From Escherichia phage NicoleGrasset_Bas72, in the sequence record PQ850621.1: a stretch of 43,746 bases of DNA; one strand, given 5' to 3'. The notes under the pieces are model-generated. The model did no database searches, was not told the origin of the DNA, and saw only the letters and a program-made list of their open reading frames with translations. Position numbers and translations under genes: made by a program. This document shows positions 3,313-38,777 of the stretch, one piece after another. Within the stretch, counting starts at the first letter, position 1, and each line of letters starts with the position of its first letter.

Positions 3313-3336
3313 ATAGCCCCGAAAGGGGCTTTCTTA
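3313..3336 (+). terminator. hairpin plus short T-tract between portal and head-morphogenesis genes (attenuator-like)
   Basis: AGCCCC gaaa GGGGCT then TTCTT. Confidence 0.35.
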
Positions 3337-31245: not shown

Positions 31246-31274
31246 ACTATAATAGCTAACTATTCAGGTGTCAA
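31246..31274 (-). promoter_or_regulatory. sigma70-like promoter TTGACA-N17-TATAGT
   Basis: On minus strand; partly within the 3' end of 31260-31463; upstream of DUF2815-like gene. Confidence 0.55.
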
Positions 31275-34021: not shown

Positions 34022-34237
34022 ATGCGACCATCTGAACTAGGCATCCGTGTAGAACAACGCCGCAAAGAACTCGGCATCTCCCAGCGCCGTTTGGCGGCCC
34101 TGACCGGCGTTTCCCAGGGCGCGATTAACCAACTGGCACTTGGAGTAACTCAGGACGTCCGCCCGGCAACGCTGTTCAAACTGGCGGAAGTTCTGGAAGT
34201 AGACGCCAAGTGGCTGGCGTTAGGTGAAGGGGCTTAA
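34022..34237 (+). CDS. XRE-family HTH transcriptional regulator (Cro/CI-like)
   Basis: 71 aa; classic HTH LGISQRRLAALTGVSQGAINQL; AAGGAG SD; own terminator 34227-34252. Confidence 0.7.
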   Translation: MRPSELGIRVEQRRKELGISQRRLAALTGVSQGAINQLALGVTQDVRPATLFKLAEVLEVDAKWLALGEGA

Positions 34238-34252
34238 AGCCCCTTTCTTTTT
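34227..34252 (+). terminator. rho-independent terminator after HTH regulator gene
   Basis: GGGGC ttaaa GCCCC then TTTCTTTTT. Confidence 0.6.
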
Positions 34253-34254
34253 AC

Positions 34255-36489
34255 CTATTCCAAATCCTCCTCTGTCACCACCAGCATCTCATTTGGTTCG
34301 TATAGTGTCTTCGGCCTTAATCTATCCCCTATTCTTTCGGGTATACGATATGTTCTCGGTACTACTTCGCCGTTAGCATCGCAACCAAGCATTAGTTCTC
34401 CATCTTTCAACATTTTATCAAGATGGGTGTTAGTCACAGAGAAGTCACCGGAACGAGCCACTATCTGCTGCTGAGTAAAACCGCGACCTGTGTCATCTGA
34501 CTGTTGCAGGTCTTCCAGTGCCGAAAGTATTGACTCCTTCCTTACTTCATCCCTGCCGCGTTTAACTTCTTCCTTTACTTTTTGCTTACCTTCTTTCGTC
34601 AACCCTTCTTCCCGCTCTTTCTCCTCGTCAGTTTTGAACGGCTCGAAACCCCACGGCATCAACACAAGCGCCTTGTGTGGTTCAGGAAGGTCCAGGTTTA
34701 CGATTGTGCCGTATTCTTCTGTGCCCCCCAGGAACTCAACCGCACGGTACTCTTTCGGCGGCGGAGCTTCGCGGAACTGCACAGACTCCAGCACCATGCC
34801 AACCGTTTTCTGTTGAGGACCGTGCTTAAATTTCGAGTGGTATACGTTTATTTGACGGTCGGTTGCACGTTCGATTGTCAGTTCCACGTCAACACCCGCA
34901 TACAGCGCCCCACTGCCGCGTGCTTTCTTTCCACCCTTCGGCGTATGGTGGACAACGCCTACTGCGGCTTTAGTTGCATCGCGTACTTCTTTCAGAATGG
35001 CGATAACTTTACCCATGCCGATTGCTGTTGATGAACTGTTCTCGTCGAACTTATCAATCGTCAGTGCCAGGGTCTGGTTAAGGGTGTCGAACGCAACCAT
35101 GCCAATTGGCTCGTCGCCAGCAGTTTCGCGCATTAACTTAATCAGGCTTTTAAGTTTGCCGACTTCGCCCATATCGATGACGTGTACATAATCTTTACCT
35201 TCCCCGCCATATTTAGCCGCTAGTGCATCAATACGGGTGCGTGTAGCTGCGCCACCCTCACCATCAATATAGAAATGGTGGCAACGCTGGGTATCCGCCC
35301 CCGCAAACCTGTACCCGGCGGCGCTGAGGTACATCATCCCCAGCGTATAGAACGATTTGTACGTGCCAGATTCCCCGACGATATCCCAGATACAATCCGA
35401 CGGCATGTACCCCTCAACGACGAAATCAGCCTTTACCGGCTCCGGTAACTCGTCCCCCTCTGAGTCCTCCTCTGAGTCCTCGTCGTCTTCCAGGTCGTCG
35501 AGGCTGCAAGTTACTGGGTCCTCGTTCTCTGTGCGGTGTAGTTCTTCAATCTCTTCTTCCGGTAAATCAGGCAGAGCCGCACGAATGCTGTTAATGCTGA
35601 TAGGTTGCTTGTCTACGTTAAGCTCGTCTGGCAGGCCGCACATACGCAGGGCCAAATGCTGTCGGCGGTTAAGCTCGGTGCAAGCGCCGTTGTTTGTATG
35701 CTGGCAGACAAAGCGCACTTCTTTACCGTCGAGCATTATGCTGGTGGAGCCCTTGCCTGTATGCAGATGTTCGTTAGGGCATGGCACTTCGTACCCGCGC
35801 CCGGAAGATAAAGCGTCAAGGCCAAGCTCGGCTTCGCAGAAGTGTGCTATATCCGCGTTAAGCCCATGCTCATCAGCGGCAAGTGTTTTAGCCTCACGCT
35901 TACGCAACCCCATCTCTTCGGCTTTCTTGATGTACCGCTCGGCACGGATAACACGCCCTTCTGTAACCGTTATCTTCGACTCTTTGTGCGGCAGGTAGAT
36001 AAGGCGGTTGCCATCTTCCGTGCAGTGGTCGCGCAACGCTTCGTCTATTTCTAACTCTGCACAAATAGCACGTTGCACCATCCACGCGTCGTTAGAGTTA
36101 AACGGCGTGCGAGCTGGAACCAGAACGCGGAAAGCGTAATCTCCGTTTTTACACACATGCTGATGCGATGCCGTTGTATGCAGAATATTGAAGAACGGTG
36201 CGTTCTTGAATTTGCGGGTAAGGTCGCGGTACTGAGTACGGTTGAGATGGTCAAAATCGAACTTAACCACACTGTCTTCCAGAATAGCGTTCTTACGGCG
36301 ACCGCCAACAGGCGCAATAGCTTTCTGTTTAATCTTGGCCGCGTCGTACTCTTCCTTAGTCCATGACGGGTCCACGGATAAACGCTTCGATGTATCGCAG
36401 ACATACTCCACAAACTGCTCGAGCGGCATCTCACGCGCTACAGGGTTTTTATCGAATGTGTTACGCAGCGTTGCAAAAACAATATTCAT
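34255..36489 (-). CDS. primase-helicase (N-terminal primase-like region, C-terminal RecA-like ATPase)
   Basis: Walker A GESGTYKS in C-terminal half; 744 aa; position in replication module; ends with VTEEDLE. Confidence 0.6.
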   Translation of the reverse strand: MNIVFATLRNTFDKNPVAREMPLEQFVEYVCDTSKRLSVDPSWTKEEYDAAKIKQKAIAPVGGRRKNAILEDSVVKFDFDHLNRTQYRDLTRKFKNAPFFNILHTTASHQHVCKNGDYAFRVLVPARTPFNSNDAWMVQRAICAELEIDEALRDHCTEDGNRLIYLPHKESKITVTEGRVIRAERYIKKAEEMGLRKREAKTLAADEHGLNADIAHFCEAELGLDALSSGRGYEVPCPNEHLHTGKGSTSIMLDGKEVRFVCQHTNNGACTELNRRQHLALRMCGLPDELNVDKQPISINSIRAALPDLPEEEIEELHRTENEDPVTCSLDDLEDDEDSEEDSEGDELPEPVKADFVVEGYMPSDCIWDIVGESGTYKSFYTLGMMYLSAAGYRFAGADTQRCHHFYIDGEGGAATRTRIDALAAKYGGEGKDYVHVIDMGEVGKLKSLIKLMRETAGDEPIGMVAFDTLNQTLALTIDKFDENSSSTAIGMGKVIAILKEVRDATKAAVGVVHHTPKGGKKARGSGALYAGVDVELTIERATDRQINVYHSKFKHGPQQKTVGMVLESVQFREAPPPKEYRAVEFLGGTEEYGTIVNLDLPEPHKALVLMPWGFEPFKTDEEKEREEGLTKEGKQKVKEEVKRGRDEVRKESILSALEDLQQSDDTGRGFTQQQIVARSGDFSVTNTHLDKMLKDGELMLGCDANGEVVPRTYRIPERIGDRLRPKTLYEPNEMLVVTEEDLE

Positions 36490-36614
36490 TTCTTTTTCTC
36501 CGCACGTTCTAAGGCTTCCTGCATACGGCGCATTGCGCGGTTCATCTTTACCGGTGCGAAGAAGTCAGCGCCGTGTTTCTGGCGGCGTAGCTGTGGAACT
36601 ATTAACTTTGTCAT
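36486..36614 (-). CDS. small basic peptide (42 aa), putative
   Basis: Stop overlaps primase ATG (ATGA); MTKLIVPQLRRQKHGADFFAPVKMNRAMRRMQEALERAEKKK; not in ORF track. Confidence 0.3.
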   Translation of the reverse strand: MTKLIVPQLRRQKHGADFFAPVKMNRAMRRMQEALERAEKKK

Positions 36615-36653
36615 TGTATAATCCTTATGCTTACTTTGATGATTTGTACTTTA

Positions 36654-36686
36654 GCCCCGACGTTCTGGCGTTGGGGTTTCTTTTTA
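36654..36686 (+). terminator. plus-strand terminator-like hairpin inside minus-strand operon
   Basis: CCCCGACG ttctgg CGTTGGGG (one G-U pair) then TTTCTTTTT. Confidence 0.4.
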
Positions 36687-36974
36687 CCGTTTAGCCAACC
36701 CTTCCAGCAAATTTTTATACTCTTCAAAATATTCCTCGACCAAATCATCGCCGAAATAGAAGTCGATATACTCGAGATTATCTCTTACGTTAAGCGATGC
36801 CGACATGGTGCTTAGTTGGCGTAAGCTAATTAGCTTCATTTCTGTTTCTACGCAGAAAGGCCGGTAGGTATCAAGATGGCAAGAGATATTGAAGCATAAA
36901 GCGAACTCTCCGGCCACGGAGTGAACCATATACACTTCGTTTTCTGCTTTATTGTGGAAAATTACGCCTTTCAT
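36684..36974 (-). CDS. hypothetical protein (96 aa)
   Basis: Co-oriented ORF; overlaps upstream gene stop. Confidence 0.45.
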   Translation of the reverse strand: MKGVIFHNKAENEVYMVHSVAGEFALCFNISCHLDTYRPFCVETEMKLISLRQLSTMSASLNVRDNLEYIDFYFGDDLVEEYFEEYKNLLEGLAKR

Positions 36975-37155
36975 TTCACGTTCTCCTTAATCCATGCTTC
37001 GACTTTATTACGGTCAAATGTTCCCGGTAAACGGCGGCCCATAACCTTAATACAGCAGTCAGGGAATTTGCCGCTGCGCAACCAGTTATTAATGGTCTGA
37101 CGTGTCACCCCGATACGCTCGGCTACCTCATTCTGTGTCATGTAATGTTGCATTT
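36971..37155 (-). CDS. small HTH DNA-binding protein (AlpA/excisionase-like fold), start at internal ATG
   Basis: HTH MTQNEVAERIGVTRQTINNWL; ATG at 37155 with AGGGGA SD; track ORF extends to 37267 but upstream part lacks SD. Confidence 0.55.
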
Positions 37156-37250: not shown

Positions 37251-37280
37251 TTGAAAGTTCTTGACACATGTTTGTATAAT
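37251..37280 (+). promoter_or_regulatory. sigma70-like promoter candidate TTGAAA-N18-TATAAT
   Basis: In divergent control region; would transcribe through palindrome 37307-37347 toward hairpin 37482-37510. Confidence 0.35.
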
Positions 37281-37306
37281 GGTTTTGGGACTTGTATATA
37301 TATTAC

Positions 37307-37347
37307 GGAGTTGACGAACCCTCCCCGAGGGATTCGTCAACCCCTCC
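37307..37347. promoter_or_regulatory. long imperfect palindrome (operator or RNA stem candidate)
   Basis: GTTGACGAACCCTC ... GAGGGATTCGTCAAC, arms about 14 bp with a short central spacer and one bulge. Confidence 0.4.
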
Positions 37348-37481
37348 CAGACAGCTGAGATGCTTGCCTTGTGGTTTAAGGATAAGTGTATCTAAATCTC
37401 ATTTAAAGAAGTAACCCGCTGAAATATCTACTGTTTCTTAATGTGCCGTAGATTCGCAACCGTAAAAATGTAACGATTATT

Positions 37482-37510
37482 GGGCAGGCTTAGGGCCTGC
37501 CCTTTAGTTA
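37482..37510 (+). terminator. terminator-like hairpin in divergent control region
   Basis: GGGCAGGC ttagg GCCTGCCC then TTTAGTT. Confidence 0.4.
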
Positions 37511-38748: not shown

Positions 38749-38777
38749 TTGCACACTAATATAGAATAGGCTACTAT
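38749..38777 (+). promoter_or_regulatory. promoter, TTGCAC-N17-TACTAT family
   Basis: TTGCAC, spacer actaatatagaataggc, TACTAT; upstream of 38809. Confidence 0.5.

Follow-up and report, generated by a model that had tools for sequence, protein, structure and literature searches.

A conserved antisense-strand terminator upstream of the primase-helicase gene of Guernseyvirinae phages, the probable 3' end of a small cis-antisense RNA

The genome of Escherichia phage NicoleGrasset_Bas72 (sequence record PQ850621.1) carries on its plus strand a hairpin followed by a T-tract, placed inside an operon that is read from the minus strand, and this element is the subject of the present analysis. The whole stretch of DNA analysed, 43,746 nucleotides (nt) in length and called the window below, is a complete or nearly complete 43.7-kb genome of a Kagunavirus (Guernseyvirinae), a virulent siphophage of E. 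coli. Its plus strand encodes the structural and late genes, and a leftward block on the minus strand, from ~37600 to 24481, encodes a helix-turn-helix (HTH) regulator, a 96-amino-acid (aa) open reading frame (ORF), a 42-aa ORF, a 744-aa primase-helicase, and others. The sole plus-strand gene upstream of the hairpin is a Cro/DicA-like gene (34022-34237), which has its own promoter and also its own terminator (34226-34255, plus strand), located ~2.4 kb upstream of the hairpin. No tRNA or tmRNA was found in a search of the window. The genes flanking the hairpin and the parts of the hairpin itself are the following:

34255..36489, minus strand: replicative primase-helicase, 744 aa (phrog_3228; AAA_25 domain)
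36486..36614, minus strand: basic 42-aa ORF, referred to as the leader ORF (phrog_23061 match, E = 7e-34)
36653..36678, plus strand: terminator stem-loop of 10-11 bp, with 2-3 G·U pairs and a loop of 4-6 nt
36677..36686, plus strand: T-tract TTTCTTTTTA, conserved in all phage classes
36684..36974, minus strand: upstream 96-aa ORF without an assigned function, a swappable module whose 3' end coincides exactly with the terminator

The arms of the stem-loop, AGCCCCGACGT and GCGTTGGGGTT, enclose the 4-nt loop TCTG and form six G-C pairs. On the plus strand the stem is directly followed by TTTCTTTTT, while no U-tract follows it on the minus strand; the T-tract overlaps the upstream 96-aa ORF by its last three bases, which are complementary to the TAA stop of that ORF. 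Folding of the plus-strand RNA gave -17.4 kcal/mol (z = -3.1 versus shuffled sequences) and that of the minus-strand RNA only -10.1 kcal/mol (z = -1.15), the latter being weaker because the two to three G·U pairs of the plus strand become A·C mismatches on the minus strand. Since a stable fold is found on the plus strand only and the minus strand lacks a U-tract, the terminator is predicted to be unidirectional. Three features of an intrinsic terminator were found here, i.e., a G+C-rich stem of at least 5 bp with a loop of 3-8 nt, an adjoining 3' U-tract, and a stem kept in evolution. Judged from its sequence, the hairpin with its T-tract is a Rho-independent terminator of plus-strand transcription only, and the initial annotation, which had placed a plus-strand-only terminator inside the leftward primase-helicase operon, is borne out in both respects. 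A role of the hairpin as a terminator or stabiliser of the sense transcript was ruled out by the minus-strand energy and the A·C mismatches. The same mismatches speak against the proposal, also made initially, that the element processes the mRNA as a structure of the sense RNA, although processing could still follow from antisense pairing.

Scanning the genome with a terminator consensus yielded totals close to those of shuffled sequences (9 found versus 5.5 expected, and 22 versus 21.4 in a second scan), with the hairpin site among the two strongest; the reality of the hairpin therefore rests on its conservation. Zero Rfam families matched the element at the gathering threshold, and at E <= 10 there were only weak terminator-like matches (<=16.6 bits) overlapping it at 36601-36692. 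The hairpin has been annotated before, as a terminator on both strands at 36864-36910 of phage fBC-Eco01 (GenBank OM272052), the terminator features of that genome being ARNold predictions (PMC9825357). The strand specificity was hidden in that call because the fBC-Eco01 variant has zero G·U pairs. As a side observation, the terminator of the Cro/DicA-like gene (34226-34255, plus strand) and the hairpin (36677-36688, plus strand) have an identical 12-nt tail, TTTCTTTTTACC.

We then determined how far the hairpin is conserved. Part of a 1-kb stretch around it was matched by 433 phage records, and over 1 kb the identity to the window reached 99.7% for Escherichia phage LotteLoewe_Bas71 (in this same stretch) and 95.5% for phage K1B4. 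A pattern scan of the collection returned 42 loci, of which L042 and L060 were excluded since they look like unrelated generic terminators. In most of the subfamily members that were checked, the hairpin turned out to lie immediately ahead of the primase-helicase gene. Three classes of phages, whose flanks are nonhomologous on both sides, have one and the same hairpin sequence immediately before the primase cistron:

Class A: the window, Sciku, RP180, and others; leader ORF present
Class B: K1H, fFiEco03, and phiEc3; without the leader ORF and with a different N-terminal half of the primase
Class C: Salmonella Jerseyviruses, e.g., Ent3

DNA homology between the classes breaks exactly at both borders of the hairpin plus T-tract. 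To the right of the hairpin lie at least four different genes and to the left two unrelated primase 5' regions, and by this comparison the element is one that survives module swapping on either side. Stem pairing was analysed in 17 distinct variants from the three classes (170 stem cells; L003 and L049 were left out): on the plus strand 170 of the 170 cells were paired, versus 76% on the minus strand and 36-59% in slid controls. Six of the 10 stem pairs vary, always through G·U pairs or compensatory changes, and three of them changed on both sides. Of the 19 variants folded, 17 had plus-strand energies between -17.4 and -18.6 kcal/mol; the remaining two, L003 and L049, have one broken pair each and gave -11.6 and -12.9 kcal/mol, respectively. 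On the minus strand the energies of the 19 variants fell between -8 and -13 kcal/mol, with the single exception of fBC-Eco01 (-16.8 kcal/mol), whose stem has no G·U pairs.

Serratia phage Otaku, Klebsiella phage 37P2, and Cornellvirus FSL SP-049 have, at the corresponding position, hairpins that are unrelated in sequence but likewise face the antisense direction. This architecture was also found in about ten more IMG/VR lineages, with primases 30-32% identical to that of the window. The layout in these distant lineages is a strong hairpin plus a T-run on the antisense strand, between the stop codon of the preceding gene and the start of the primase or leader gene; a sense-strand U-tract was found in none of them. 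The T-tract was present in every lineage examined, including those with unrelated stems.

A promoter-like signal accompanies the hairpin. In the window it consists of a perfect -10 hexamer at 36617-36622 and a weak -35 hexamer, and it defines, together with the terminator, a short predicted transcription unit:

36594..36622, plus strand: candidate sigma-70 promoter TGGAAC-17-TATAAT, with a position weight matrix (PWM) score of 11.2 (99.98th percentile of genome positions)
36629..36686, plus strand: predicted cis-antisense RNA of ~58 nt, made up of a 24-nt unstructured U-rich 5' part and the terminator

Within class A this promoter is unchanged (14 distinct sequences, 27 copies in total), but the diversity there is too low for the conservation of the hexamers to be informative. 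All lineages examined have a sigma-70-like site upstream of the hairpin on the antisense strand; its -10 hexamer ends 30-54 nt before the hairpin, except in L142, where an extra stem is present and the distance is 77 nt. The sites in the other lineages were as follows:

K1H type: TTGCGA-17-TAAAAT, PWM score 12.7
Jerseyvirus: TTGCTA-17-TA(A/G)ATT, 12.6
37P2: TTGATT-17-TATATT, 13.6
SP-049 and L138: TTGACT-18-TATACT, 14.2
L147: TTGATT-18-TATAAT, 14.0
L144: 10.8
Otaku: 9.0
L129 type: TTGCAT-16-GATAAT, 7.9

Among random 39-nt slots, scores of at least 11.2, 12.6, and 13.6 occurred at frequencies of 0.015, 0.007, and 0.004, respectively. An antisense site scoring at least 11 within 45 nt was found at only 1 of the 55 gene starts of the window, the site there being a strong plus-strand promoter in its own right. 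The persistence of the promoter signal through complete turnover of the surrounding sequence argues for selection. A promoter scan found no strong plus-strand promoter between 34255 and ~36590, including the primase gene. No strong sense promoter was found between the hairpin and the leader ORF either, so the region targeted by the predicted RNA would be transcribed as part of the operon.

A separate plus-strand unit was noticed in the leftward early region, at 37251-37510. Its strong promoter (TTGAAA-18-TATAAT, PWM score 15.3) is followed by an inverted repeat at 37307-37344 and a plus-strand terminator at 37482-37510, and the unit may produce a second antisense or leader RNA of ~220 nt, opposite two small annotated minus-strand ORFs. 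The -10 context TTGTATAAT is common to 36614-36622 and to this strong promoter at 37272-37280.

The 5' end of the predicted antisense RNA was placed 7 nt beyond the end of the -10 hexamer. Across the lineages the RNAs predicted in this way are 58-73 nt long and consist of an unstructured 5' part and then the terminator. Relative to the first downstream start codon, their 5' ends lie at -15 in the window, +6 in the K1H and Jersey types, -17 in 37P2, and -4 in Otaku. The predicted 5' end in the window is 3 nt upstream of the Shine-Dalgarno sequence (SD) of the leader ORF, and in the K1H and Jersey types the predicted RNA spans both the AUG and the SD.

The leader ORF connects this region with the primase-helicase gene. 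It has an SD (AAGGA) at 36622-36626, and its TGA stop codon overlaps the ATG of the primase as ATGA at 36486-36489, which agrees with the initial annotation of a short basic ORF coupled to the primase start. Among nine distinct DNA versions of the leader ORF, the variable sites fall 2/1/7 on the three codon positions, a pattern that suggests that the ORF is translated. Two segments of the mRNA within it are predicted to pair with each other:

36496..36505, minus strand: GUGCGGAGAA, which holds the primase SD; predicted to pair with 36554-36563
36554..36563, minus strand: UUCUUCGCAC, codons 18-21 of the leader ORF; predicted partner that would sequester the primase SD

The resulting 10-bp stem appeared in both the minimum-free-energy and the centroid fold of a single-sequence prediction; taken as a whole, the region was no more stable than shuffled sequences (z = +0.65). 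According to this model, translation of the leader ORF may unmask the ribosome-binding site of the primase. As side observations, Otaku has a 44-aa basic ORF (L065 1313-1447) that is next to the antisense terminator on its downstream side and shares an ATGA overlap with the primase start, and a 20-nt gene-junction sequence (sense strand TGCGGAGAAAAAGAAATGAA, containing an SD and an ATGA overlap) occurs three times in the window, at 36485-36504, 36835-36854, and 36970-36989. One of these copies (90%) lies inside the 96-aa ORF and could be an internal start or a recombination scar.

Observed at this locus, then, are a terminator, its strand specificity and conservation, a promoter-like signal, and the overlap of the leader ORF with the primase gene. 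We consider that the hairpin is most likely the 3' end of a ~58-nt cis-antisense RNA that limits expression of the leader ORF and the primase-helicase, an explanation that ranks first among those considered and to which we assign a probability of roughly 0.55. From the sequence we infer that the RNA is produced and in which direction and by what mechanism it acts. Its transcription would start at the sigma-70 promoter whose -10 hexamer (TATAAT, 36617-36622) lies inside the SD-AUG spacer of the leader ORF, and the RNA would be fully complementary to the 5' leader in the intergenic region between the leader ORF and the preceding gene, from 3 nt upstream of the leader SD to the stop codon of that gene. 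Pairing with the mRNA would hinder the loading of ribosomes on the leader ORF and/or create a substrate for RNase III; in addition or instead, sense transcription would suffer interference from the convergent promoter. Reduced translation of the leader ORF would in turn reduce that of the primase-helicase because of the ATGA overlap and the predicted sequestration of the primase SD by codons 18-21.

A time course of RNA sequencing in K1B4 assigned the HTH gene to the early class and the primase to the middle class, these being coarse, gene-level classes (PMC12645636). This split is compatible with control acting between the two genes and proves nothing. A bolder version of the same idea, which we regard as possible though doubtful, is that the antisense RNA is a subfamily-wide feature of the Guernseyvirinae whose amount scales with genome copy number and feeds back on primase-helicase synthesis in the manner of CopA or RNAI, acting in the window through the coupled 42-aa leader.

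Several observations weigh against an antisense RNA that controls leader and primase translation. The -35 hexamer of the window is poor (3 of 6 matches), the -10 hexamer is part of an SD-AUG spacer whose richness in A/T allows chance occurrences of such hexamers, and the PWM was home-made. The promoter p-values are not independent, as the lineages may share an inherited promoter. Dhillonvirus phages with a homologous primase lack the element, the gap upstream of their primase gene being just 10 nt. The leader ORF is absent in the K1H and Jersey types, and no homology was found between the leader peptides of the window and Otaku; the Otaku leader looks like an independently evolved ORF with the same layout. 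The predicted RNA of the Cornellvirus-like lineages comes no closer to the primase SD than ~45 nt on its upstream side; occlusion of the ribosome-binding site can therefore not serve as the mechanism in all lineages, and what they have in common may instead be promoter interference or processing by RNase III. Finally, the leader ORF of Sciku (L063 1377-1503) is frameshifted by a 1-nt deletion to give a 34-aa product. This product ends in a changed C-terminal sequence and no longer overlaps the primase by ATGA, and the deletion is either a sequencing error or a sign that the C-terminus of the peptide and the tight coupling are dispensable.

The terminator might also act alone, as an insulator that stops diffuse or read-through plus-strand transcription coming from the primase gene or beyond before it enters the early regulatory region and its promoters, with no dedicated RNA involved. 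The initial annotation had suggested such a role in stopping antisense read-through. The terminator, its orientation, and its conservation fit this equally well, and the terminator of the Cro-like gene has the same 12-nt tail, TTTCTTTTTACC, so that the hairpin could be a second barrier. The Cro-like gene is, however, already well terminated 2.4 kb upstream, which makes read-through from it unlikely, and the stretch from there to ~36590 lacks a strong plus-strand promoter. An insulator would also leave unexplained why lineages with unrelated sequences all have a promoter-like site 30-54 nt (77 nt in one locus) before the hairpin, and this recurrent site points instead to a dedicated short antisense transcription unit. 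We therefore do not regard the stopping of read-through as the best reading and hold insulation alone to be rather unlikely.

Less probable still is that, in line with a proposal for lambda pO, antisense initiation as such matters rather than pairing with the mRNA, be it through polymerase collisions and local topology or through an RNA that serves as an activator or primer of an origin. The geometry resembles that of lambda pO/oop, located between a regulator and a replication gene and dampening transcription from pR (PMC3985674), and the failure of the predicted Cornellvirus-like RNA to reach the SD speaks for some mechanism that does not work by occluding translation. On the other side, neither iterons, DnaA-box arrays, nor other origin-like repeats were found near the element, the GC skew shows no local switch there, and the predicted 5' end falls within -17 to +6 of a start codon in five lineages, as would be expected if the initiation of translation were controlled. 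We give the lowest rank to a role of the DNA or of the sense RNA, such as a recombination linker between modules, a priming hairpin in single-stranded DNA, or a stem that stabilises or processes the mRNA, and consider it improbable. Homology does break exactly at the borders of the hairpin, which is common to otherwise unrelated modules, and DNA hairpins also tolerate G·T pairs. Yet the T-tract, a feature specific to termination, is kept in all lineages, even next to unrelated stems, and the A·C mismatches weaken the stem on the sense strand. That the element is a recombination junction is an observed property, but one compatible with the terminator role and no substitute for it.

Phages of the Guernseyvirinae (Kagunavirus, Jerseyvirus, Cornellvirus) are among those most often isolated for therapy and biocontrol of E. 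coli and Salmonella, and to our knowledge there is essentially no work on how their genes are regulated. Nothing relevant emerged when the literature was searched for studies of transcription or antisense RNA in the subfamily. The hairpin itself is already known, being an ordinary one that was once annotated as a predicted terminator. What appear to be new are its assignment to one strand, its subfamily-wide conservation at one position, and the associated promoter, and hence a predicted small RNA gene of the oop/CopA kind in front of the primase-helicase gene. If the antisense RNA is real, it would rank among the first regulatory RNAs to be proposed for the Guernseyvirinae and offer a handle on the timing or dosage of replication; if the copy-number version is also true, a strictly virulent phage would control the copy number or dosage of its replication in the style of a plasmid. 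These phages also serve as small chassis for synthetic biology, as the BASEL paper (citing CM001) notes with regard to their small genomes. The element marks a module boundary for genome refactoring, and deleting or moving the "intergenic" DNA here would remove a candidate promoter and a terminator. More generally, where annotation software has called a hairpin on both strands, the asymmetry between G·U and A·C can reveal the strand to which it belongs.

Two further side observations concern the genome around the element. The primase-helicase (34255-36489, minus strand) is a mosaic: the helicase half at its C-terminus (aa ~350-744) has 73-94% identity to the K1H and Jerseyvirus proteins, and its N-terminal half is a domain that differs from theirs, is also present in Sciku (58.5% identity over the whole protein), and has a distant match in Dhillonvirus and Cornellvirus. 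A 16-nt palindromic motif, AATAGTAnCCTATTAT, occurs in eight copies in the window, versus 0.26 expected, at 3335, 5138, and 14133 on the plus strand and at 31249, 33932, 33976, 37589, and 38763 on the minus strand. Its orientation mostly matches the transcription blocks; the copy at 38763 is a minus-strand one among plus-strand genes. Several copies overlap TTGACA-17-TATAGT promoters, and the motif is the "phage promoter" consensus reported for fBC-Eco01; it is probably an operator or promoter element.

Among known systems, the feature of the fBC-Eco01 record OM272052 is the same hairpin, given as a generic prediction with no promoter, RNA, or conservation. The lambda pO/oop unit shares with the window, where the unit is predicted, a short antisense transcription unit made of a sigma-70 promoter and an intrinsic terminator, its convergent placement in an early operon between a regulator gene and a replication gene, and a terminator end that reaches the 3' end of the upstream gene. 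Its target, cII, has a lysogeny function. The oop RNA overlaps ~50 nt of cII and works through RNase III, and the pO promoter dampens sense transcription (PMC3985674). In the window, in contrast, the overlap with the upstream ORF is limited to the stop codon, complementarity is to the 5' leader of a replication gene, and the phage is virulent; oop has no sequence relation to the element, which also has no Rfam match.

The ~70-nt sar RNA of phage P22 is an antisense RNA transcribed from a promoter inside an operon, and it pairs with the intercistronic ribosome-binding region of ant. The window resembles it in having a (predicted) small antisense RNA directed against a ribosome-binding region from a promoter within the operon, and differs in the genes involved, which are those of the arc-ant immunity region in P22; no sequence similarity was detected in the comparison made, an Rfam scan of the window.

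There is also a parallel in layout with the CopA/tap/repA system of plasmid R1 (IncFII) and the RNAI-leader-rep systems of IncI, IncB, and IncI2 plasmids, where a short antisense RNA of the constitutive type, predicted in the window, is likewise complementary to the mRNA leader just upstream of the SD of a leader ORF. In the R1-type systems this ORF is coupled through an overlapping stop and start to the gene of the replication protein (PMC8053102, citing Blomberg et al. 1992). Sequestration of the SD of the replication gene by leader-ORF sequence, a prediction in the window, is typical of the R1- and IncI-type systems. The differences are that the window is a virulent phage and not a plasmid, that its replication protein is a primase-helicase instead of a RepA initiator, that its leader has 42 aa versus 19-29 aa in the plasmid systems, that its predicted RNA has a single stem-loop, the terminator, versus two in CopA, and that sister phages which keep the predicted antisense unit lack the leader ORF. 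No homology to the R1-type systems was detected, nor was any sequence or structure homology to the CopA, ctRNA, or RNAI families (no Rfam family at the gathering score). The predicted logic of the element is like that of the R1-type systems, but it is not a member of their family.

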